A DNA stretch of 20,509 nt from Alphaproteobacteria bacterium (GCA_038131935.1 JAYPQH010000007.1:1-20509), one strand, 5' to 3'. Numbered from the stretch's first letter, positions 7,752 through 20,509 are shown. The notes: generated by a model not told the origin, from the letters alone. Translations and numbers: made by a program.

Positions 7752-7841
7752 GGACAGGTGGCCGAGTGGTCGAAGGCGCACGCCTGAAAGTGTGTATACG
7801 GTGATCCCGTATCGAGGGTTCGAATCCCTCCCTGTCCGCCA
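7752..7841 (+). tRNA. tRNA-Ser, GGA-type body, with one base missing in the anticodon loop as written
   Basis: Acceptor stem GGACAGG/CCTGTCC, D-arm TGGCCGAGTGGTCGAAGGCG, anticodon stem CACGC/GTGTG around CTGAAA (6 nt), long variable arm, T-arm GAGGGTTCGAATCCCTC, discriminator G plus encoded CCA. Confidence 0.92.
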
Positions 7842-8041: not shown

Positions 8042-8476
8042 ATGATTGATGATCTCATTGATGAAAAAGTGGTTAATGAATTTGATCGAGAACAGTTGGA
8101 AGATTTGAAAAGCCATATCGAAGGCCTTCTCGAGACTTATGGGTTTGGAGATGTTACGGGACTTACAAATCTAATCAGGGTTAGTCATCTACTACACCGA
8201 GATTTTAGAGATTTTCTAGCAGATGAAATAGATAAAATCCTTAAGGGTGAATTCAAGCCAGGTGAATCCAAGCCTCTTACAAAAGAACAATTACGAAAAC
8301 GCTATAGAAACCTAATGATTCATCATTACTATGAGTCGGAGCGAGGACATTTTTTTCCCGGTACAGGTAGTGGCCCCAAAGGGCGGCCAAGAGATGAAAT
8401 CATTCACGAGCTGATGGAAAAACATTCACTGGCCTACGAAACGATATATGATATTTTGAAGAAAAAAGAGGGGTAA
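8042..8476 (+). CDS. Hypothetical protein with a possible C-terminal HTH
   Basis: 144 aa with SD GAGG. The C-terminal RDEIIHELMEKHSLAYETIYDILKK has a helix-turn-helix-like pattern. It lies directly upstream of alpA. Confidence 0.6.
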   Translation: MIDDLIDEKVVNEFDREQLEDLKSHIEGLLETYGFGDVTGLTNLIRVSHLLHRDFRDFLADEIDKILKGEFKPGESKPLTKEQLRKRYRNLMIHHYYESERGHFFPGTGSGPKGRPRDEIIHELMEKHSLAYETIYDILKKKEG

Positions 8477-8556
8477 ATTTTATTTTTTTACCCATGAAGC
8501 GCATAATCTGAATCCTTAAATTCTTCCTAGATCCAACCAAAGACTAGGAGATATCA

Positions 8557-8754
8557 ATGGAAAACCCCATACGATTATTAAGACGTAATGAAGTTGAACA
8601 GATCACAGGGTTAGCTCGTAGTACCATCTATGCGTACATGCGGTCTGGCGACTTTCCACACCCTATTAGAATAGGCATTCGTGCCGTCGCATGGAAAAGT
8701 TGTGATGTTGAGGAATGGATAAACCATCGCGCTATCGCAGGTGAACAACCATGA
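8557..8754 (+). CDS. alpA: AlpA-family phage regulator / excisionase
   Basis: RLLRRNEVEQITGLARSTIYAYMRSGDFPHPIRIGIRAVAWKSCDVEEWI is a typical AlpA sequence; SD AGGAG. Confidence 0.95.
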   Translation: MENPIRLLRRNEVEQITGLARSTIYAYMRSGDFPHPIRIGIRAVAWKSCDVEEWINHRAIAGEQP

Positions 8755-9716
8755 CCAGCACAATCATCACAGAAGCTTTACGGAACAAGGCAAAAACTAA
8801 TGCAAAGGCGATCTGCCTAGATGTGCTAGGCAAGCCAAGTAGTGTAACTACTCATGAGCTCCGTTATGGCAATCGGGGATCGCTCTGTATCTGTGTTGCT
8901 GGGCCCAAGGCTGGCACCTACCACAACTTTGAGACAGGCAAAGGCGGTGATATGATTAGCCTGTTGTCAGACAAACTGGGCGGCATAGGCCAGGTTGTGA
9001 GATACCTAAGCGAAGATCACGGTGACACAGTTTCAACTTCTGCAACTGTGCATACAATACCCATGCCTAATCAACCAAAGGCTAAGCGTTGGTCCCATTA
9101 TGCACAACAGATCTTTGACGCATCAGTTCCGCTACAGAGAACGGCTGGTGAACATTATTTGGCACAGCGTGGTTTAGTGGATATTCCAGTAAGTGAAGAC
9201 ATTCGCTTTTTGGAAAGAAGCCCCTACCAAGCCTGCCCAGCTATTGTCTCACGGATTACTGATGCAAAAGTGCATAACGATTACATGAGCCTACATTTTA
9301 TATTCATGAAGGCCGATGGTTCAAAAGCGTTTCCCTTGCACAGAGGTAATAATAAACATCTGTTAGGTAATCATCAGACTCAAGGCGGTGTTATCAGAAC
9401 AACAGATGATACAGAGGTAGAATTAGGCCTGGGTGTGGCAGAAGGGCTGGAAGATGCGCTCTCAGCCATGATGATCTTTAAAACGCCTGTGTGGGCGGCT
9501 ATCAGCGCAGGAAACATCGCCAATCATCTACCAGCTATAAGTGGGATAGATACCTTATGTTTATTTGGTGATAATGACGATGCAGGCCATAAAGCGGTGC
9601 GTGCAGCCATAAAGAGACTAAGCAAAGATGGGTTAACTGTTAAACCTGCATTCCCACCCAAGTGCTACAAAGACTGGAATGATTATCTTATGGGGGATCA
9701 TCATGAACAGTCCTGA
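8751..9716 (+). CDS. Toprim-domain DNA primase (phage/plasmid type)
   Basis: N-terminal RYGNRGSL...G.YHNFETGKGGDMISL, YLAQRGL, Toprim VAEGLEDALS, GDNDDAG and KDWNDYL. ATGA overlap with alpA. Confidence 0.88.
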   Translation: MTSTIITEALRNKAKTNAKAICLDVLGKPSSVTTHELRYGNRGSLCICVAGPKAGTYHNFETGKGGDMISLLSDKLGGIGQVVRYLSEDHGDTVSTSATVHTIPMPNQPKAKRWSHYAQQIFDASVPLQRTAGEHYLAQRGLVDIPVSEDIRFLERSPYQACPAIVSRITDAKVHNDYMSLHFIFMKADGSKAFPLHRGNNKHLLGNHQTQGGVIRTTDDTEVELGLGVAEGLEDALSAMMIFKTPVWAAISAGNIANHLPAISGIDTLCLFGDNDDAGHKAVRAAIKRLSKDGLTVKPAFPPKCYKDWNDYLMGDHHEQS

Positions 9717-10864
9717 TTTGAATCAAGTCATTCAGACGTCTGAAGCAGACTTAAACGGAATTCCAGTGGATGAACACGGTAATATAGACCTCAAGCAGAT
9801 GAATGTCCTTAATGCGCGGGATTTACCGCCACGGATAGAGCCTGTGCCTTACATTGTGAAAGGAGTGCTTAACCAAAAAAGTATGGCGTATGTATATGCG
9901 CAGCCATCCACTGGCAAAACCTTCTTTACATTGGATTTGGCGTATCATGCTGCTGCAGGGCGTGTTTGGATGGGTAAGCGTGTAAATAGGACGAATGTAC
10001 TTTACTGCATTCAAGAGGGTGTGACGGGCTTTAAGAACAGAATGAAAGCCATCCAGGCGGAAAAGAACTTTGCTGATACAGATTTTTACTATCGGACAGA
10101 GCGTATCAATCTTATGAAGGATGCTGATACAAATGATATCATCAGGCAAGCCAGAGCTGTGCGAAACGGACGCCCTGTGCTGGTCATCATTGATACCCTG
10201 AGTCAGGCCCTTGCAGGCGAAGACGAGAACAGCAGTAAGCCTATGAGCAAGGTTGTTGGTGAATGTCAGCGTATCCAGCGTGAGGCAGAAGCAGCTGTGC
10301 TCCTTGTCCACCATACAGGCAAAGCTAAGGATAATAAGACAGTCAGAGGGCATTCAGCATTACGCGGGGGTACTGACACAGAGATCTTGTTGGAGCGCAC
10401 GAGTGAAAGCGAAGAAAATCTCATCGTTAAGGCGACAACAAAAAAAAGCAGCGTGATGGGCAAGAGGGGCGCTTTGTACATTCCAACTTGAGAAAGTGTA
10501 TATGGGGAATGATGCAGAGGGTGATCAAATTACGTCACGGATCATCAGGCAGGTAGAAGATACTTTTGACGGTGCGGGGTTTGCTGAAGTAGGCAAGGAT
10601 GAAGGGCCAGATTTTAAAAGTGATCATAAAAGAGCAATCTTCGAGTGCTTTCAGTTGCTCAGAAAGGAACTGGGTAAGAATGAGGTTCCTATTGAGCTGC
10701 TAAAGGAAGCGTATATCATTAAAAAGAAACCAACGAATGGCCGTCAGTTGTGGGCGCAAAATTTTAGAGAAATGCAAAATTCTCATTACCTTGCAGTTGT
10801 TGGAGCTAAGGACGTGAAAGAAGGAGATTGGCGTAAGTTTGCAAGCTTACGCTTAAGGGGCTGA
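9703..10864 (+). CDS. AAA_25 / RepA-like replicative helicase (one gene split by two frameshifts)
   Basis: Walker A AQPSTGKT, Walker B VIIDT, VHHTGK and RGHSAL. A shift in the A8 run at 10440-10447 restores KQRDG, and a second shift near 10494 joins ORF 10496..10864 (GNDAEGDQITS). The likely start is ATG 9703 with SD GGGGGA. Confidence 0.85.
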
Positions 10865-10893
10865 CACAGGAAAAAAACCAAGTCTATACAATG

Positions 10894-10946
10894 GTGTAAG
10901 TATGTAAGCGTAAGTACCCCCTTCTTTAGAAGGGGTACTACTTACA
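10894..10946. other. Putative replication origin: GTAAG iterons flanking a palindrome
   Basis: GTAAG occurs three times (gtGTAAG tatGTAAG cGTAAG), followed by TACCCCCTTCT-TT-AGAAGGGGTA and then inverted CTTAC, immediately after the helicase. Confidence 0.55.
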
Positions 10947-10999
10947 ACATGTTAGATGGCGCTTATTTATGCTTTGTGATGGCTATATAAAAGAGATAT

Positions 11000-11056
11000 G
11001 GGTCCTTCCACCATGTTCAACCGCGAGGTATTCGCAAGCGCGGCTTTCTCCTAGCG
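11000..11056 (+). other. Lambda-like cos-like packaging motif (cosQ/cosN-like)
   Basis: GGGTCCT (the lambda cosQ heptamer) at 11000-11006, then the dyad CCGCG-N13-CGCGG (11021-11043) followed by CTTTCTCCTAG, resembling lambda's CGCGGGTTTTCGCTA. Confidence 0.5.
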
Positions 11057-11070
11057 GTAGGATTACCTAT

Positions 11071-11210
11071 GAGTGGTCTGTTGGCTGGCAAAATACTGAA
11101 CTTGGTAAGCTCGTGAAAATAGGGTTCGTAGAAAGCTTCCATGGGTAAACACTTAGACGAATGCCTAGACAAAGCCCTTTTTTATATCACTCAGGCATGT
11201 CCTGTATAAA
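11071..11210 (+). pseudogene. Decayed IS3-family transposase C-terminal (integrase core) fragment
   Basis: Translates as VGWQNTELGKLVKIGFVESFHG/KHLDECLDKALF, resembling the IS3 consensus WHYIxPGKPxQNGFVESFNGRLRDECLNxxLF. Confidence 0.65.
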
Positions 11211-11323
11211 GGCTTGCCATTCAACAATCAGGCTTCTTCCAAACGAAGGCCTTTATGTTTGAGTGAGGGATGTTTGCTCTCTGGTCAGAGCTATTAGGTT
11301 TAATACAAAAAATTAAGTGCAGA

Positions 11324-11806
11324 TCAATCGATATCTATCGTCACAATTTCACCATTATCAAATACTACCTCGTCACAATTCTTACCATTCCCACCCCGAT
11401 CAATGATAACAAATTGTTGAGGCTTTATGACCAATAATGGGTGGTGCCAGACATTGCTGTGATAATTTACACCCTGTTTGCCGGTCGCCCAGAATGTACA
11501 CAGACTGATTCTGGTTTGGGCTCATTTCAATAACCACAAGCCAACGCATATTATCGATTGGATAAAAAGCTTGGTTACCTAAAGGATGCTTTCGAGCATC
11601 CCAATTTGAGCGGACGAGGCCTGCTTAGGAAAATGCTAAATTGCGCTTTTAGCATTTTCGCCACCTAGTTGGATATCAATGAGATTATGAACTCGGGTTG
11701 TGTATCCTGAATTAATCTCAAACTGCTCTGCCCCCTCGACTTGAATCACGTCCCCGAAAGGTGCAAACGCTTTTCTTGTTAACGCTTCAGGCTTAATTAT
11801 GCGCAT
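11324..11806 (-). CDS. allA: Ureidoglycolate lyase (frameshifted as written; absent from the ORF track)
   Basis: Manual translation gives MRIIKPEALTRKAFAPFGDVI...INSGYTTRVH, HPLGNQAFYP, QGVNYHSNVWHHPLL, FVIIDRGGNGKNCDE. The ATG overlaps the allantoicase stop (TGATG), the stop is at 11324-11326, and there are several indels between about 11500 and 11650. Confidence 0.88.
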
Positions 11807-12792
11807 CAGATCGACGTCCCAAAAATGCGAAGGCGTGAGATTCCACCATCTGGATAGGCGTTTAGTTTCACATGTGTCACCGGATCCTGAGAGGACACTT
11901 TGTAGGTATGTACGGAGTCGGCAGTCAGCGCTCGGTATGTCAACACCTCATCCCAAAACATCGCTTGGGTGACAATTGCATCCTTTCCTAGATTTGGCAT
12001 TTGAGCAGCCTGCAGAGAGCAGCCCTCCGGAAAATTACCCTTGAAGTGCGCAGTGTCGATTTCTATGCGTTCTATTATTCCAGGAATCCCCAGTTTCACA
12101 ATAATCCACTCGTTGCCTGGAACACGGCGACGGGCGGTTTCCCAACCATCGCCCATATTCAAACCACGACCTGGAGTCAGAATAACTTCTGGATTTCCAT
12201 AGTGCGCATCCGAGTAGGCGACGACTTTTCCACCAAGCTTGAGAGCAGATAACTCAAGTTGAGCTCCCTGCATAACCTCGTCAGCAACTGGCTGCCCATA
12301 TACTTTGAGCCTTGCAACCCCACCATCAGGATAAATGTTTAAACGAATCCAGCGAATTGGTTGATCGTGAGATTTTGCATTAAAAAAATAATGAGAATTC
12401 CCCTGAAGACTGACTTCATCTAACAAGTCAATCCAATGTTCGTCAGATGGTCGACCGACACTCGATGATCCTTGAATCGATGCACCTGGCGGATAGTTAC
12501 CTGTGAAATGTGCCGTATTGATATCAAAACCAGCGATCATTCCAGGGACTGCCAATTGAATCAGACACCAATCAAATCCCCCACTCCGGCGACGACGGGA
12601 TTCCCAACCATCCATGTATTGACCATTGGCATCAAAACGACCTTTATGGAACTCAGGCTCTGAATCAGAGAGCAACCTCTGTTTATCAGCAAAGAAATCA
12701 TCGCTGCAATCGACGGCAATTGCACCAAGCTTCGCGCTCGCGAGATTCACAGCGCTCAACGCGAACCTCGGTAGATTTGATTCAACACTCAT
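11806..12792 (-). CDS. alc: Allantoicase
   Basis: Two-fold internal repeat: SDDFFA...DGWESRRRR...TAHFTGNYP...NIYPDGGVARL and SDAHYG...GDGWETARRR...DTAHFKGNFP...YPDGGISRLR. Confidence 0.96.
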   Translation of the reverse strand: MSVESNLPRFALSAVNLASAKLGAIAVDCSDDFFADKQRLLSDSEPEFHKGRFDANGQYMDGWESRRRRSGGFDWCLIQLAVPGMIAGFDINTAHFTGNYPPGASIQGSSSVGRPSDEHWIDLLDEVSLQGNSHYFFNAKSHDQPIRWIRLNIYPDGGVARLKVYGQPVADEVMQGAQLELSALKLGGKVVAYSDAHYGNPEVILTPGRGLNMGDGWETARRRVPGNEWIIVKLGIPGIIERIEIDTAHFKGNFPEGCSLQAAQMPNLGKDAIVTQAMFWDEVLTYRALTADSVHTYKVSSQDPVTHVKLNAYPDGGISRLRIFGTSI

Positions 12793-13326
12793 CTGCTTTT
12801 CTCTCTAAACGTAATCGAGTGATCCGATGGACCTCTTCAAATGCTGTTTTAAATCTTTCCTCGCAAGAAGTATTCACTCTGAGACGAAATATTTCCAAAT
12901 ATCAGATCGGTGATAATCTTTCACCACAGATATAAATGGAAACCTAACATCAAAAATTAATTCTTAAAAATTCCGTAGCTCTTTAAGCGCAGCCGGTCAA
13001 GCCCGCGTTCGTCTGCTCTGAGTGGACGACTCGATAAGTTCAGCGAAACGCAGCTAGTCAGATAGAGCCGAGTTAAAAATAAAAAAGGATTGCATTAAAC
13101 TTATAGGGTGCCTGTGTAAACAATAGAGCTCATCTGTTTCGCGATCAAAAGCGGTTCATTATAAGATTTCAACGATTGATAAAGCGCCTCAGCAGCACAT
13201 GAATTGTGCTAATGGGGGTACAATGCAACGTTCCAACCTACTGGCCAAACGGCACTGTATTGGTGAACCGAATTTAGCTGTCTGGATTTCGGAGATATAG
13301 TAATCCCTATCATGACAGGTGAGCAG

Positions 13327-13446
13327 ATGAAGAAAAAGTCTCAACAAAAATATAGCCCCGAGTTCAGACTCGAGGTGGTAGCTCTAAATGTCGATCATTG
13401 CTTGAAAATCAGAGACATTAATAATGCAAGGTTTTATCGAGTTTGA
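13327..13446 (+). pseudogene. IS3-family transposase orfA N-terminal remnant
   Basis: MKKKSQQKYSPEFRLEVVALNVDH... matches the start of the HTH_Tnp_1 domain (KYSPEFRLE) and stops after 39 aa. Confidence 0.6.
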
Positions 13447-13536
13447 AAAGACCTACTGAATTTGTGGGATAGGTGAGAGCTAAAAAATATAAGCCCCTAA
13501 TGATAAAACATTAAATTTAATCCCTGTCGCTAAGAA

Positions 13537-14385
13537 TTACTCTAACTCGCCCAGCAGTTCGTGCTGGCGTTCGACCCGCTCCATATGCGCTCGCCCTGGT
13601 TTTCCAGAGTATAGAAAAGCTGTCACCGCAATAAGGCGTAGTAAACTGAGGCTTGCAGTTGCTGTATCAAAGACCAGAGGGCTGCGCGTTTCAACTTTAA
13701 AACACCAGTGGGCCAGAGCAGGTATACGCCGAGCTGTATTATCAGTAATTAGAAGCCTTTTGGTTTGGCAGGTTTTTGCTTGCTCCATAATCTGAGTTAG
13801 CTGCCTGAGTCGACGGCGCAATCCTATGCCGATAACCAGATCAGATTTGGTAAAGTCGGCGGTATATTCGCCGACTGTCTCGCCTGCTGCAGGAAGGGTG
13901 TAAACATCTCCTCGAAATTGGACAATCTGCCAGCGCAAATAAGCTGCTAGGAAATGACTATTTCTGAATCCCGCTATCCAAATACGCTTCGCAGCTATTA
14001 TGGCTAGCGCGGCATCATGAAGCTCAGTATAATTCAACTGTCCAAGACTATGTTTGAGTAGCTCAACCTCTTCTGATATATATTCTTTCAGCTCGACATG
14101 GTGCGACGAAGACTTGTTTTCAAGATAAAGTGGTGAGCCCCAGTTTTGACGATCACGCGACTGTTTGCGCGCCTCCTCATAAGATGAGTAACCTAGCTTC
14201 TGAAAGAAACGCGTACCTGAGGCTTTTGAAACTCCGGCAAGTATCGCCAACTCCGTAACGCTTCTTGAGCCAAGATCACCAGGTAGGCGCAGCACAGTTT
14301 CTGCAAGCTTCCTTTCAGAGTCAGACAAGTCCTCATAGTGCTCATGGATCCTTAATTCCACTGACTTCGGCCGGTGTGGTGCCAT
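13537..14385 (-). CDS. MurR/RpiR-family transcriptional regulator (HTH + SIS)
   Basis: LSDSERKLAE, ELAILAGVSKASGTRFFQKLGYSSY HTH and a SIS domain (RIWIAGFRNS, LLITD). It is divergent from the TRAP operon. Confidence 0.92.
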   Translation of the reverse strand: MAPHRPKSVELRIHEHYEDLSDSERKLAETVLRLPGDLGSRSVTELAILAGVSKASGTRFFQKLGYSSYEEARKQSRDRQNWGSPLYLENKSSSHHVELKEYISEEVELLKHSLGQLNYTELHDAALAIIAAKRIWIAGFRNSHFLAAYLRWQIVQFRGDVYTLPAAGETVGEYTADFTKSDLVIGIGLRRRLRQLTQIMEQAKTCQTKRLLITDNTARRIPALAHWCFKVETRSPLVFDTATASLSLLRLIAVTAFLYSGKPGRAHMERVERQHELLGELE

Positions 14386-14439
14386 ATTTTTCTCAGAAAA
14401 GGACTAACGCAAAGCTTATTGATATCACGCGAGTGATTA

Positions 14440-14567
14440 TGAAACAAATGTTTCAGTTTTAACAAACTTTAGACTTTATAAAATTTATACATTTCAATAG
14501 TTTTAAATTTTTAATGAAATATTTGTTAAATTATTATTGACTTTATGAAACAACAATTTCATAAATT
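14440..14567. promoter_or_regulatory. Divergent promoter region with TGAAAC-N4-GTTTCA-type operators
   Basis: TGAAACAAATGTTTCA (14440-14455, perfect 7-bp IR), TGAAATATTTGTTAAA (14515-14530) and TGAAACAACAATTTCA (14546-14561). The last lies just after a -35-like TTGACT (14538-14543). Confidence 0.7.
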
Positions 14568-14600
14568 TGAAACATAGGCCAATGTACATAGGTGTAACGA

Positions 14601-15147
14601 ATGCCCAGTACTACCCATCATGAAAACGCGCCAATTGCGCTAACTGCAATAAGGCTTAGCCGCGGACTTAATTGGTTTGTTGAGCGTCTCTGTGTTGCGC
14701 TACTGGTTATCCTTGTTTTGGATGTTTGGCTGGGTATCATGGCGCGCTACATTCTTCCTTGGCAGTTAACGTTCACAGAAGAACTGGCTCGTTATCTAAT
14801 GATCTGGGTGGCGCTGATTGCTGTTTCCTCCCGGAATCGCACACCGTGAGCATGTTGGCGTACTCATCATCTTCGAGCGCTTTCCTACCCTGACGCGGAA
14901 AATGGCTTACGCAGTCTTGTTTGATCTAATCGCATTAGTCTTCTTTGGAGTCATTTTGATCTATGGTATCGGAATGGTTGAGCGAGGCTTTAGTCGCTAC
15001 ACCATGATCAATGAGATCCCAAAAGCTTGGCCTTTTATGGGCGTTCCGATTGCAGCAGGTCTCGCTTGCATACAACTGATAATGGTAAGCGTCCATGACT
15101 TATTTGCCACGGACGTTTACGTTGCTAACTCGCAGATGGGGAGCTGA
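14601..15147 (+). CDS. dctQ: TRAP transporter small permease DctQ (one frameshift near 14830)
   Basis: IMARYIL...FTEELARYLMIW, followed in another frame by GIAHREHVGV and further TM helices. Confidence 0.88.
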
Positions 15148-15150
15148 AAT

Positions 15151-16429
15151 ATGTTTCTCGTTGCAATTACTTTCTTTGGTTTAATGGCGATTGGCATGCC
15201 AGTAGGTATTGTTATGGGTGTTGCGGGTATGGTGGGTATCTGGGACATGGGACCTAATTTTTGAAGATGGTCCCAGACCGTTTATTTGCTGGACTTGACC
15301 TCTTTCCCTTCTTTATGATGCCCTTCTTTATCCTTGCGGGTGAGGTAATGAATAAGTCTGGCATTACCGCAAATCTGGTAAGGTTCGCTGATGCGCTGGT
15401 CGGCTGGTTGCGTGGTGGGATGGCATGATTCCAACATGTTGGCATCTGTCATGTTTGCTGGAATCACAGGCGCAGCGACGGCGGATGCCGCGGCTTTCGG
15501 GAACACGCTTGTCCCGGCGATGGTGAAAAAGGGTACTCGCGCCCCTTCTGCCTGCGCGGTTACAGCAGCAGGCTCGATTATTAACCCACCATCCCACCCT
15601 CGACACTCGCTGTGATCTACGGATCGATTATGGGCGTCTCGATTGCTGGACTGTTTGCTGCGGGTATTCTGCCTGGGTTGCTGATATGTATCGTTTGTAT
15701 GGCGCTTATCGCCATCTTCGGCAAGCGCTGGAATCTGCCTAAAGGCGACACGCGTCCGAGCCTGATGGGTATCATTGCTGCGTTTCGTATGAGTATTCCT
15801 CGCTTTGATACTTCCAGTGTTTATTCCTCGGGTCAATACTCGGTGGCTTTGGTAACTCCAACGGAAGCAGCTTCCGTTGCGCTGGCGTACTCGCTGTTTA
15901 TCGCTGTGGTTGTTTATCGGTCAATTACCTGGAGTGACCTGTTTCATATGATGGTGCGCACTGCTCGCATCACTGGAGTAATCTTTTTGATTATCGCATC
16001 TGCTTCGATACTTGGCTGGTGGGATGACGTTTAATCAAACCTACAAGCAATTGCTGGCGATTTCTCTCGATCTCATCAAATCCTCAAGTGATCATTGGTC
16101 TAATCCTGATCTTACTGCTGTTCATCGGCTTGTTCATGGATATCAATGCCACCCTGATCATCCTTGCACCGGTACTGGCACCATTGACACTCAAGATTGG
16201 AATGGACCCGGTACATGCTGGAATCATGATCATTCTGGCACTTAATATCTCGTTAATGACGCCGCCTGTTGGCGCCTGCCTATTTGTTCTCGCCTCAGTA
16301 ACCCAAGAAAAAGTAGAGAACATTACGAAGAGTCTTTGGCCATTCCTGTTAGCAGAGCTTCTTGTACTAATTCTGATCGCATTCTGGCCAGACTTAACAC
16401 TCGCTATTCCGCGAATGTTTGGCATGTAA
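15151..16429 (+). CDS. dctM: TRAP transporter large permease DctM (multiple frameshifts)
   Basis: MPFFILAGEVMN, FAGITGAATADAAA, SIAGLFAAGILPGLL, TPTEAASV, GMDPVHAG and TPPVG are distributed across frames. Confidence 0.9.
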
Positions 16430-16473
16430 ACCTTAAACCCGCAAACCCCCCAAATACGATAGGAGATTCCCAA

Positions 16474-17508
16474 ATGACTATTTTCCATTCGATCAAAACT
16501 TTCGCCATCAGCGGTGTTGCAGCAGCAGCAATCTCGTTCCCAACAATGGCAGCTGATGTGACCATGCGATTGGCTCACCTGAATCCAGCTGACCCGTTTG
16601 TAAGTCACTCTGGAGCTATGACTGCCGTTTTCAAATCATTGGTTGAAACTGCCAGTGGCGGCTCCATCGAAGTTAAGCTTTTCCCGGACGGTCAGTTGGG
16701 AAAGGACAACGAGGTAATTCAGCAAGTTCGCGATGGACTCGTGCAATCAACAATTTCTTCCGCGGGGGTATTGCACAGCACTATCCTCTTGTAGGCGTAT
16801 TTGATATTCCTTTCGCTTTTCCCAACATAGCGGTATCCAATCGTGTGATAGATCTTCACAGTGACTTCGGTAAGAAGTTTGCTAGCGGTCTTGAGTCAGA
16901 AACTGGTCTGAAGGTTATGGGCCTATTGGATAGCGGTGGTTTCTTTGCGTTTACCAACTCAAAAAAGCCGATCACCAGCGTAGCGGATATGGACGGCCTT
17001 CGTATTCGTACAATGACGCTCCCTACCCACCAAGCGATGGTCAACTCACTGGGTGGTCAAGCTACTCCACTGCCTTGGCAGAGGTTTATACTGCACTTCA
17101 GACAGGTGTAGCAGATGGACAGATGAACCCTATTCCAATCATCGCTTTCGCAAAATTTGATGAGGTTCAGAAATACCTTCAATTACCAACCATGTGATAA
17201 CGCCTTACGTCTGACAATGAACAAAGAATTCTATGACAGCCTGACCCCAGAACAGCAGTATATTGTTGATTGGGCTGCTGAGGTTGCAGTTGAAACAGGT
17301 CGGGTATGTCTCGCGTAATCGAAGCTTCAGAGAACGGTTTACCAAAGCTCGCTGAAAAGATGGAAGTAAATGCATCCCCTGCAGAATTAGCTAAGTTTTT
17401 GCTGAAGTCGCACAGCCTGCTGTGTGTGCTCTAATTGAAGAGAAGTACGGTGAGGCGGGTATCGATATGCTCAATTCTATGCTGGCTGAAATAAAGAAAG
17501 CGATGTAA
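16474..17508 (+). CDS. dctP: TRAP substrate-binding protein DctP (multiple frameshifts)
   Basis: SD AGGAG, signal peptide MTIFHSIKTFAISGVAAAAISFPTMAA, LFPDGQLG, FDIPFAF, DMDGLRIRTM, GVADGQMNP, FDEVQKY. Confidence 0.9.
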
Positions 17509-17525
17509 TTTAGTGAAGAACTGCG

Positions 17526-17547
17526 GCGGGAGATGCCTTTCTCCCGC
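17526..17547 (+). other. Intercistronic hairpin after dctP
   Basis: 8-bp stem GCGGGAGA-tgcctt-TCTCCCGC with no U-tract; more likely an mRNA-stabilising or attenuating hairpin than a full terminator. Confidence 0.5.
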
Positions 17548-17582
17548 TCTCAAACACCCCGTTAACACCATTAGATGTTGGC

Positions 17583-18824
17583 ATGAAACAACTTTACCCC
17601 TACTTCCAACTAGATATACCCGTTGATTACGCGGTAAATCCATCGGCCGCATTTGAATCAATTGGCGCTGACAATGCCTTGAGCGTTGTGTCAGACAAAG
17701 CTAGAGAGGAAGCGTTCTTAGAAATTTGCTCGTGGAAAGGCTATGAGCCCACACCATTAAGGAGCCTTGGTGGACTAGCAGCTGCCTTAGACGTAACAAG
17801 CGTTGCCTATAAAGACGAGGCCTCACGGTTCGGATTAGGAAGCTTTAAAGCACTCGGTGGTGCCTATGCCGTTATGCAAGTTCTTAAAGAGCAGATCGCC
17901 AATCATTTTCCTGATATGAACATCAGTTTGTCAGATATACGAAATCATAAATTTGCAGAGCAGGTCGCAAAAGAGACAGTATGCTCTGCAACAGATGGCA
18001 ATCATGGACGTGCAGTCGCTTGGGGTGCGCAGCGTTTTGGCTGTCGTTGCGTAATATATGTGCACGAACGCGTTAGCCAAGGTCGTATTGATGCGATAGC
18101 TGCTTATGGCGCTGAGGTTCGTGTTGTAAAAGGCAACTACGACGATGCAGTTCGTGAAGCAGCCCGAGTTTCAGAAGCCGAGGGCTGGATAGTCGTTTCA
18201 GACACCTCCTACGAAGGTTGTGTAACCATTCCCCGCAATGTGCTAACTGATACACTGTGATGGTGACCGAGGCAATTAGTCAACATGAAGCTTTCTATGG
18301 CCGCCCTCCTACCCATGTCTTCGTGCAAGGAGGAGTAGGTGCATTAGCGGGTGCAGTGGCATCCACACTCTGGGATTACTACGGTGTTCAGCGGCCGATT
18401 TGTTGTGTTGTGGAACCCGACAAAGCAGCCTGTATGATGAAAACTGTTCGCCAAGGCAGTCCCGCCGTTGTAACTGGTGATCTGGATACCCTAATGGCTG
18501 GACTGGCTTTAGGTGAAGTCTCTCTAATCGCCTGGGACATACTGGAAAAGGCAGCAGACCACTTTATGGCAATTACGGATCAGTCTGCCGTTGAATGCAT
18601 GCGCTTATCTAGCTAATTCCCCGGTAATCCACCAATTGTGGGAGGTGAGTGCCGTCGCTGGTTTGGCTGATGTATACTCGCTTGTGCTGATGAAAATCTT
18701 GTAAAAGTACTGAAACTAACGTCCTGTAGCCGTATTCTTGTTTTTGGCACTGAGGGTGCAACTGATCCAGAGCTATACGCCGAACTCGTAGGTCGCCCTG
18801 CTTCTTGAGGTTTGTCCTGAATGA
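17583..18824 (+). CDS. dpaL: Diaminopropionate ammonia-lyase (PLP, fold type II; frameshifted, end approximate)
   Basis: YEPTPL, YKDEASRFGLGSFKALGGAYAV (PLP lysine), ATDGNHGRAVAWGA, VSDTSYEG, PTHVFVQGGVGALAG, MAGL and C-terminal VFGTEGATDPELY. Confidence 0.92.
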
Positions 18825-20085
18825 GCCAACAAACAATACTAAAAATAAATGGCGACCGTCTGGTCGACCGATTGAAATGCCTAGGTCAAGTTGGTTCTCT
18901 CGATGGTGGCGGTGTTAGTCGTTTGGCACTGACAACTGCGGATAGAGAAGGTCGGGACTTGGTTGTGAGTTGGATGGAACAGTTAGGCATGACTGTCAGC
19001 ATCGATCAAATAGGAAAACATTATTGCGACACGCCAAGGTGCAGATCAAAACGCTGCACCTGTCATGACTGGATCACATATCGATACCGTCAGAACTGGT
19101 GGCCTCTATGATGGCAACCTAGGAGTACTTGCAGGACTCGAGGTTGTGGAATGTTTAAACGAGCTTGATATTAAAACGCGTCACCCCATTGCTGTCGCTG
19201 TGTTTACCAATGAGGAGGGCGCACGCTTCTCTCCAGATATGATGGGTAGCCTCGTTTATGTTGGCGGAATGCCGCTGGCTGAGGCCCTAGATACTGTAGG
19301 AATAGATGGTAAAACTGTACGAGAGTGTCTGAATGAAATTGGCTATGCAGGAACAAGCAAGATCTCGACGCCAAGCGTACACGCATTTCTGGAACTGCAT
19401 ATAGAACAGGGCCCGGTTCTGGACGAAGAGCAGGTACAGATTGGCGTTGTCGAGGAGGTACAAGGATCTCTTTGACCGAGTATACCTTTGAAGGCGTGTC
19501 CAACCACGCGGGTACTACACCCTAACGATGCGGTTGCGAAAAAGATGCTGGGTTTGCTTATGTCCGTTGCCAACCATGTTAGAGAGCTGGCGATTAAAAT
19601 GGGTGGAAATCAGGTAGGGACAGTAGGTTTTATCGAAATTAAACCTAACCTGGTGAATGTTGTCCCTAACTTCGCACGCATTACAGTGGATCTTCGAAAT
19701 ACTGACGAAAAACTGCTGCAACTGGCAGAATCGAAGTCTAACCGATTTCATCGATTCTATCTGTTCAAAAGAAAAGCTAAAAGTAAGCAGTAAAAACCTC
19801 GCCCGTTTTGAGCCAGTCACTTTGAACCCCTCTGGTTGATCGGGTTGAGCAAACTGCGAAGTCTTTCGGATACTTCAATGCGAATTCCATCGGGGCTGGG
19901 CATGACGCACAAAATGCTCGCCGTGTATCTGCTCCTTCGGCTATGATTTTTGTTCCCTCCAAAAAGGGATCAGTCACAACATCAAAGAATTTACAGCACC
20001 AGAGGATTTGTGTCGGGGGGCAGATATTCTGGCTGAGTCTGATGCTGGATCTTGCTATTCAGGAGAGAGGAGCGATGTGCTATGA
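18821..20085 (+). CDS. M20-family Zn amidohydrolase (N-carbamoyl-L-amino-acid hydrolase / allantoate amidohydrolase / beta-ureidopropionase type; frameshifted, end approximate)
   Basis: GGVSRLALT, GSHIDTV..GGLYDGNLGV, NEEGARF, ELHIEQGPVL, SNHAGT, NVVP, GAGHDAQ and MIFVPS across several frames. Confidence 0.9.
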
Positions 20086-20509
20086 TCGAGAAGGTTTCCC
20101 GTCCTATTATGTCTGGGGTTGCCCAGCTAGGTCCTATCGCTCGAGAGGAGTCCAGAGCGAGTGTTATCGCACGAATGATAGCACTCCTCGACAAAGCGTA
20201 TAGTTGCGGATGTAAGCTCGTGGTATTTCCTGAGCTTGCACTGACAACCTTTTTCCCGCGCTGGTTCATAGACGATCAGCACGAGATTGATAGCTATTTT
20301 GAGACTGAGATGCCGAGCGCTGAAACCGACCGCTTTTTGATAAAGCGCGTGAATATGGTATCAGCTTTTATCTCGGTTACGCAGAGCTCATTGCTGAGGC
20401 GGGTCAGAAAACGGCATTTCAATACCGCAATTTTGGTCAACGCTCAGGGTGAGATCATCTCGAAAATATCGAAAGATTCACCTCCCCGCCATCGTGAACA
20501 TGAGAGCAA
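20082..20509 (+). CDS. N-carbamoyl-D-amino-acid amidohydrolase (D-carbamoylase, nitrilase superfamily); 3'-truncated, frameshifted, absent from the ORF track
   Basis: Manual translation gives MIEKVSRPIMSGVAQLGPIAREESRASVIARM...VVFPELALTTFFPRW...YFETEMP, then FYLGYAEL, FNTAILV and KYRKIHLP, closely resembling Agrobacterium DCase. Confidence 0.9.
   Translation, partial: MIEKVSRPIMSGVAQLGPIAREESRASVIARMIALLDKAYSCGCKLVVFPELALTTFFPRWFIDDQHEIDSYFETEMPSAETDRFLIKRVNMVSAFISVTQSSLLRRVRKRHFNTAILVNAQGEIISKISKDSPPRHREHES

Follow-up and report, generated by a model that had tools for sequence, protein, structure and literature searches.

The window, the whole 20,509-nucleotide contig analysed here (GCA_038131935.1 JAYPQH010000007.1:1-20509), comes from an Alphaproteobacteria bacterium and is contig C7 of the 67-contig, 2.48-Mb assembly G000, which is 89.9% complete. 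Its last 6 kb hold an operon for a transporter, an ammonia-lyase and two amidases, with a regulator gene upstream. The gene order is rpiR on the minus strand, followed on the plus strand by dctQ-dctM-dctP-dpaL-M20 amidase-DCase. The rpiR gene (13537-14385, -) is intact, is divergent from the operon and encodes a 282-aa RpiR/MurR-family regulator (HTH_6 plus SIS, Pfam). A tripartite ATP-independent periplasmic (TRAP) transporter is encoded by dctQ (small permease, 14601-15147, +), dctM (large permease, 15151-16429, +) and dctP (solute-binding protein, 16474-17508, +). The diaminopropionate ammonia-lyase gene dpaL (17583-18808, +), a gene for an M20 amidase of the hydantoinase/carbamoylase family (18821 to about 20080, +, the 3' end being approximate) and the 5' part of a gene for an N-carbamoyl-D-amino-acid hydrolase (DCase-type CN-hydrolase, 20082-20509, +) complete the set. 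The last gene is truncated by the contig end; its 3' half is missing, and about 145 of about 305 residues are encoded. Metagenome contigs extend beyond the contig end at 20509.

From 14601 onward, none of these genes is an intact open reading frame (ORF). For their reconstruction, we aligned the intact orthologous proteins of two syntenic loci (L079 and L057) to the window by frameshift-aware dynamic programming. The L079 reference resulted in 29 single-base frameshifts in the 6 kb (one in dctQ, eight in dctM, six in dctP, one in dpaL, nine in the M20 gene, and four in the DCase gene), and the L057 reference in 30 (one, eight, six, four, eight, and three, respectively). The dctQ gene was identified through these alignments, and its frameshift lies near 14830. 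Only two in-frame stops were found in the operon, both in dpaL (TAA at 18614 and TGA at about 18668). The first-pass annotation had referred to a corrected DctP; dctP is indeed broken, but the damage is wider and affects all six operon genes. The corrected products are 56-79% identical to the orthologues of a Rhodospira metagenome-assembled genome (MAG), over practically the whole length of the latter. Identity to the L079 counterpart is 79% for the corrected DctM (residues 1-426) and 77% for the corrected DctP. Additionally, the period-3 coding signal of the broken stretch is 11.6, compared with 11.1-11.7 for intact coding DNA and 6.3 for shuffled DNA.

The profile matches and coordinates bear out the families and the gene order proposed in the first-pass annotation, including its naming of DpaL, of the CN-hydrolase as a D-carbamoylase and of the M20 enzyme as a carbamoylase. 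The window DpaL matches NF006058 in two pieces, with 232.8 bits over profile positions 16-207 and 151.1 bits over 210-327; neither piece reaches the cutoff of 276 alone because of the frameshifts. The intact orthologues scored 506.9 and 489.5 bits against this curated equivalog (NF006058/TIGR01747) and matched the solved E. coli and Salmonella enzymes with E values of 6e-73 to 2e-80. When the window DpaL was aligned to 4D9G_A, the lysine of GSFKALGG fell at position 77 and the aspartate of ATDGNHG at position 120 in YgeX numbering, which we take to be the pyridoxal 5'-phosphate-binding lysine and the aspartate base.

The DCase orthologues align over their full length (about 300 residues) with 1FO6, with E values of 5.8e-134 and 5.2e-129. 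In the window, the first 81 residues of the CN-hydrolase were searched, and residues 7-79 matched solved DCases (E 3.7e-22), including the FPE glutamate equivalent to E47. The L079 orthologue keeps E47, K127, C172, and R175-R176, which comprise the Glu47-Lys127-Cys172 catalytic triad and an arginine pair. In the window, frame correction is needed to bring out the K127 equivalent, and C172 lies beyond the contig end.

All four window fragments of the M20 enzyme match TIGR01879 and NF006769, the best with 160.3 bits against the TIGR01879 cutoff of 204, and the intact orthologues scored 397.3 and 408.5 bits. The nearest characterized enzymes, matched over the full length with E values of 1e-88 to 1e-95, are L-carbamoylases and N-carbamoyl-beta-alanine amidohydrolase (3N5F, 8APZ, and 8C46). 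The closest solved relatives are the uncharacterized structural-genomics entries 4WJB, 5THW, and 5I4M. The orthologues failed the AllC equivalog TIGR03176, with 258.4 and 268.7 bits against a cutoff of 597.75, and AllC and ureidoglycolate amidohydrolase (UAH) ranked far below the carbamoylases in the PDB search.

The three TRAP subunits are all present and adjacent. Two DctM fragments match TIGR00786, the DctP fragments match TIGR00787 and NF037995, and a DctQ orthologue from another locus matches Pfam DctQ; the L057 orthologues exceed the DctM and DctP cutoffs. Among the nearest solved DctP relatives are 4N8G and 4NGU, which were reportedly crystallized with D-Ala-D-Ala. The solved relatives were also considered as a guide to the TRAP ligand and were set aside, as the best matches either contain no ligand or are complexes with unrelated acids (PMC11668362).

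The window RpiR is 50% identical to its L079 orthologue over 275 aa in a single frame. The divergent promoter region (14440-14562) harbors two palindromes, TGAAACA-N2-TGTTTCA, at 14440-14455 and 14545-14562. A GAAA-N6-8-TTTC palindrome was also found upstream of the operon at L057:6988, L065:6743, L085:6868, L064:6902, and L050:4458. Thus, six of the nine promoters examined, the window included, carry it between rpiR and the operon, and it is AT-rich even in high-GC genomes; these counts come with no chance estimate. We consider these palindromes a candidate RpiR operator.

The neighborhood survey, which had been set beforehand as a test capable of refuting the proposed pathway, found the genes together elsewhere. 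It comprised 80 DpaL loci on reference contigs, one genome per species, with 50-61% identity to the window DpaL fragment. The M20 and DCase genes were both adjacent to dpaL, in the order dpaL-M20-DCase, in 23 loci, and a further four loci paired dpaL with the DCase gene without the M20 gene, which suggests that a mono-ureido substrate can suffice. The M20 gene was present alone in seven loci, some of them on short-cut contigs. TRAP genes were found in 12 loci, and the full seven-gene set rpiR/dctQMP-dpaL-M20-DCase in eight loci of Alpha- and Gammaproteobacteria (Billgrantia, two Halomonas, Acidihalobacter, a Paracoccaceae MAG, Paralimibaculum, the Rhodospira MAG, and Dinoroseobacter). An rpiR homologue adjoins the TRAP genes in nine loci and adjoins the cluster without TRAP matches in three more (L040, L055, and L070). 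In a further set of 80 metagenome loci, the sequence reached 2.5 kb or more past dpaL in 45; both hydrolases were encoded in eight of these and the full order was found in four. The operon is therefore widely conserved and is more than a chance arrangement. A full-text literature search, judged from titles and the starts of abstracts, found no publication on a DCase-M20-DpaL-transporter cluster.

A second architecture, found mostly in Burkholderiales, occurs at L010, L029, L038, L045, L073, L074, L081, L084, and others. Here, DppABCDF-type transport genes precede dpaL-M20-DCase, so that a Dpp/Opp-type ABC transporter replaces the TRAP system, and an M81 MlrC-like peptidase and an Amidohydro_3 (PF07969) protein are added, in 11 of the 80 reference loci. 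The Amidohydro_3 protein matches the Alcaligenes D-aminoacylase (E 1e-160). The composition of this version of the module suggests that it is linked to D-amino-acid or peptide catabolism.

The first-pass annotation had also offered a hydantoin as a possible precursor. Neither a hydantoinase nor a racemase occurred among the recurrent neighbor families of the 28 loci carrying an M20 or DCase gene, and without such a linked gene the hydantoin precursor is unsupported. We further searched five genomes, namely the one that the window comes from and those of four carriers of the cluster. A D-hydantoinase was above the cutoff in two of them, where its contig or coordinates differ from those of the cluster (L085 and L019), and it was absent from the window's own, incomplete genome.

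Among established metabolic routes, ureido hydrolysis is connected with DpaL only in the lower branch of the reductive (2,8-dioxopurine) urate pathway, which has turned the ureido-diaminopropionates that the first-pass annotation postulated into known metabolites. In this pathway, ureidomethylhydantoin is opened to 2,3-diureidopropionate, and one ureido group is removed by YgeW (phosphorolysis) or UacY (hydrolysis). The other is taken by YgeY, so that the route passes through albizziin or 3-amino-2-ureidopropanoate to 2,3-diaminopropionate (DAP), which YgeX converts to pyruvate (PMC12507026; PMC12990295). A commentary on the urate pathway notes that the R (D) configuration has been proposed for the ureido intermediates.

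By analogy, the conserved module may import a diaminopropionate derivative, strip its ureido groups purely by hydrolysis, and convert the resulting DAP to pyruvate and ammonia; judged from gene content, we place this function just short of an even chance. The RpiR-type regulator would control a TRAP transporter importing a carboxylate with carbamoylated amino groups. The best cargo candidates would be 2,3-diureidopropionate and the mono-ureido diaminopropionates albizziin and 3-amino-2-ureidopropanoate. Acting on a D-configured substrate, the DCase-type enzyme would cleave off the N-alpha-ureido group; the other ureido group would be hydrolyzed by the M20 enzyme, which is of the carbamoylase/beta-ureidopropionase type, and DpaL would turn the free DAP into pyruvate and two ammonia. 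The identity of the substrate, its stereochemistry, and which of the two hydrolyses comes first are all inferred. Such a route could release as many as four nitrogens together with one pyruvate, and would require neither ATP nor redox steps. Since a transporter is present, the compound would come from outside the cell. Consistent with an external source of the substrate, SsnA (TIGR03314) was above the cutoff in none of the five genomes.

The module shares with the E. coli ygeW-ygeX-ygeY/hyuA genes and with the C. difficile UacY system the same terminal family (YgeX is DpaL) and the same logic of ureido removal leading to DAP and then to pyruvate. In C. difficile, moreover, the first cleavage is already hydrolytic. 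In contrast to the urate cluster, the TRAP-type loci have neither a YgeW carbamoyltransferase nor a UacY-type (PF07969) enzyme. Their M20 enzyme falls within the AmaB/HyuC carbamoylase subfamily (TIGR01879) rather than that of YgeY, and a DCase-type nitrilase-fold enzyme is added. The upstream genes of the urate pathway, for which SsnA served as marker, are missing in the five genomes searched. They also differ in having a dedicated uptake system with an RpiR regulator and in their hosts, which are aerobic marine or soil Proteobacteria by their record titles. The idea of a route built from different enzymes fits the two hydrolases, although the route as a whole is more aptly called a hydrolytic version of a branch since described.

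Several points weigh against this function. The M20 subfamily differs from that of YgeY, and the SsnA result means that the cell would have to obtain the substrate from outside. No ligand can be read from the nearest solved relatives of DctP (E about 1e-50). In addition, DCases accept many N-carbamoyl-D-amino acids with a broad side-chain tolerance, and DpaL enzymes are also weakly active on serine.

The main competing function, prompted by the Burkholderiales context, is the general salvage of N-blocked D-amino acids or of small peptides containing D-residues or DAP. The DCase and the M20 enzyme, with a D-aminoacylase in some lineages, would then act in deblocking, and a DpaL-type lyase would deaminate D-serine or DAP, so that the physiological substrate could be something other than a ureido-DAP compound. 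The Burkholderiales-type loci fit this view, with their peptide-type ABC transporter, M81 peptidase, and D-aminoacylase match, as do the side-chain tolerance of DCases and the D-Ala-D-Ala reported in 4N8G and 4NGU. However, the lyase orthologues exceed the DAP ammonia-lyase cutoff by a wide range and reach only about 50 bits against the D-serine dehydratase cutoff of 246. That a lyase specific for DAP recurs in such close company with two enzymes of carbamoylase type also points to a DAP-bearing substrate. We consider general salvage rather unlikely, and prefer the ureido-diaminopropionate function.

The two hydrolases also have relatives in other settings. The cluster DCase orthologues align with, and keep the catalytic residues of, the Agrobacterium/Pseudomonas DCase of the industrial hydantoinase process; unlike in that process, the gene is fixed here beside dpaL and an M20 carbamoylase gene, with no hydantoinase or racemase neighbor. 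The AmaB/HyuC L-carbamoylase and N-carbamoyl-beta-alanine amidohydrolase share the M20 subfamily TIGR01879 with the window enzyme. AllC and UAH share with it the M20 superfamily and, on the proposed function, would also share the hydrolytic release of nitrogen from a ureide.

To our knowledge, the natural substrate of the industrial DCase has not been established, and the natural role of the DCase family is unsettled. A bolder and rather doubtful proposal is that this module represents the long-sought natural role of D-carbamoylases. It would serve the aerobic, purely hydrolytic scavenging of (R)-2,3-diureidopropionate and mono-ureido-diaminopropionates, which have been known hitherto solely as intermediates within anaerobic urate degradation. 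Marine and soil communities would then exchange these compounds as nitrogen sources in the environment. If the function proposed for the module holds, a physiological substrate would be assigned to an enzyme family that is an industrial workhorse. A transporter-fed variant free of ATP and redox steps would also be added to the ureido-diaminopropionate chemistry first described in 2025 in gut anaerobes, and ureido-DAP compounds would be indicated as a traded nitrogen source. Culturable carriers exist among the Billgrantia, Halomonas, Paralimibaculum, and Dinoroseobacter isolates.

The state of the locus in the window was assessed separately, using public metagenome data. Public runs from 14 studies contain the stretch, and we compared the contigs of four runs (X1-X4) from four independent metagenome studies, all of which span 14401-20509. 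Summed over the long pieces, the gaps relative to the window numbered 63, 58, 60, and 61 for X1 to X4, and the substitutions 55, 75, about 100, and 132. An indel load that stays constant while the strain distance changes is the pattern expected of indels private to the window. Among the 12 of 64 indels that were listed, ten were common to all four runs and two to three runs. Seven of these 12 lie within 5 nt of frameshifts inferred independently from the protein alignments. All four runs lack one base at 14830 (dctQ), two bases at 17396 (dctP), and one base each at 19015 and 19736 (M20 gene), and the dctM indels at 15798, 15826, and 16021 are absent in all four. The indels span one or two bases, and insertions and deletions are balanced, the X4 contig, 8.7 kb in all, covering the stretch with 6064 nt against 6065 nt in the window. 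These indels are private to this assembly.

The same type of lesion was found in essential genes of the assembly. The secA gene has a 1-base deletion of one G of a GG pair (C18:160560-160800), rpoC lies in four frames with three frameshifts (C17:49796-53998), and dnaE lies in two frames with one frameshift (C2:10028-13398); rpoB and mutL are intact. Because essential secA, rpoC, and dnaE cannot be dead, the assembly demonstrably makes such errors. Very probably, then, the operon frameshifts are single-base indel errors of the assembly, crowded into the final 6 kb of C7, and not gene decay. The operon is real and most likely intact in the organism. Residual indel errors are spread through the whole assembly, and as single-base indels occur even in essential genes, apparent pseudogenes of this assembly should not be read as biology.

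Other observations count against assembly error. The last 6 kb hold about 10 indels and 5 frameshifts per kb, which is 20-40 times a background of about six frameshifts in about 23 kb of pheT, lepA, rpoB, rpoC, dnaE, secA, mutS, and mutL. Individual confirmation was obtained for seven of the 29 frameshift sites and not for the other 22, given that 12 of the 64 indels were listed. The two stops in dpaL are a further difficulty. The 40 window-private substitutions listed hit 30 codons, with 13 synonymous and 17 non-synonymous changes, a larger non-synonymous share than is expected of a conserved gene. Phasing near frameshifts is unreliable, however, and the changes may themselves be errors; this split fails to separate errors from decay. 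The mutS gene is frameshifted by an extra T in a T run (C22:79577-82184), and, if this is real, the natural indel rate would be higher. Finally, the genome holds stretches devoid of coding signal.

Taken together, these observations could describe a mismatch-repair-deficient lineage in which the frameshifts are real and the operon is a young pseudogene array on a decaying, accessory, tRNA-linked island. The split mutS, the substitution split, the dpaL stops, and the long stretches devoid of coding signal (the final 20 kb of C18, for example) would agree with this, as would the position downstream of a tRNA and phage-like genes. The only same-genus genome (G001) has no DNA match to 11200-20509, which would also suit an accessory island, although at 84% completeness it does not establish that the region is absent. 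Natural pseudogenes, however, show far fewer indels per substitution and a deletion bias, and here the indel-to-substitution ratio is about 1:1 to 1:2, with balanced indels of one or two bases and no larger deletions. Coding periodicity is undiminished, the essential genes carry the same lesion type, and the mutS break may itself be an assembly error. We regard decay as improbable. Assembly error at the locus together with the ureido-diaminopropionate function, read jointly, has in our estimate an even chance.

A near-identical intact copy was sought with the DpaL fragment in metagenome contigs, and none of the 80 loci exceeded 65% identity. ORF-poor blocks at contig ends were considered as an error sign and rejected, as the last 20 kb of C18 (C18:217528-237527) lack coding periodicity and are not error-laden coding DNA; 48 fragments gave no Pfam match, there was no period-3 signal, and G001 had no DNA match. 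A block of C8, tried as a truncated secA, was discarded because it follows a complete 657-aa SecA paralogue. The carA, mltB, adh_short, EamA, and ABC genes are split at the starts of C10, C29, and C9, which is compatible with either error or decay.

Upstream of rpiR, the window carries two genes of allantoin catabolism on the minus strand. The allantoicase gene alc (11806-12792, -) is intact and scored 397.6 bits against the TIGR02961 cutoff of 277.9. The ureidoglycolate lyase gene allA (about 11324-11806, -) is split over at least two frames; matches of its fragments to ureidoglycolate lyase models cover profile positions 1-54 and 106-164. Both are neighbors of the operon, as the first-pass annotation had noted, but the link is local. 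An allA match lies near the cluster in only one of the 80 other DpaL loci (L065, beside the DCase gene), and alc and allA are missing from the remaining 79, so that they are outside the conserved unit. An extension of the allantoate route, with the M20 enzyme as allantoate or ureidoglycolate amidohydrolase and the operon handling allantoin-derived ureides, could appeal to these genes 1-3 kb upstream, to the L065 arrangement, and to the best NCBIfam label of the M20 enzyme (NF006769, a subfamily named 'allantoate amidohydrolase'), yet it is very improbable given the low AllC scores and the poor AllC and UAH ranks, the rarity of alc and allA at other loci, and an AllC pathway that has no step needing DpaL.

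The remainder of the window begins with intact genes at 1-7.7 kb, namely pheT, a LepA-type GTPase gene, msrA, a sulfatase gene, and a metallophosphoesterase gene. A tRNA of class-II length (90 nt) follows at 7752-7841. ARAGORN names no anticodon for it, and its anticodon loop was read as 8 nt, which may be another indel error. Phage- or plasmid-type genes come next (8042-11150), among them genes for a Toprim primase and an AAA_25/DnaB-like ATPase together with two ORFs of unknown function, and they are followed by a short stretch that resembles a transposase remnant by its appearance. The ureide genes may thus lie on a tRNA-linked island.

Elsewhere in the assembly, C5:71827-91826 (GC 0.37) has almost no ORFs and contains scraps of polysaccharide genes and an IS3-type transposase, and C15:1-9000 (GC 0.24) also has almost no ORFs. 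The ORF-poor stretches of C18, C5, and C15 could represent ancient junk DNA, DNA of foreign origin, or mistakes in binning. The missing 3' half of the DCase gene was sought on other contigs, and the only other match, on C35, was rejected as a full-length paralogue in an unrelated amidase cluster. That cluster (L086, C35:11343-18442, GC 0.41) is intact and encodes an ArgE-type M20 protein, two amidase-signature amidases, a class II aldolase-like protein, and this second full-length DCase-type CN-hydrolase, which is 51-53% identical to the cluster orthologues. A formate-tetrahydrofolate ligase and a PaaK-like ligase adjoin it, and contig C35 may be mis-binned. A second paralogue of the M20 carbamoylase family lies at C16:1058-2403 (L087), where one frameshift splits it into 138 and 310 aa; the adjoining ORF encodes a TorA-like molybdopterin reductase and covers only the C-terminal two-thirds of the profile. 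Lastly, a seawater metatranscriptome run (X16) contained 13% of the sampled words of 14601-20509.

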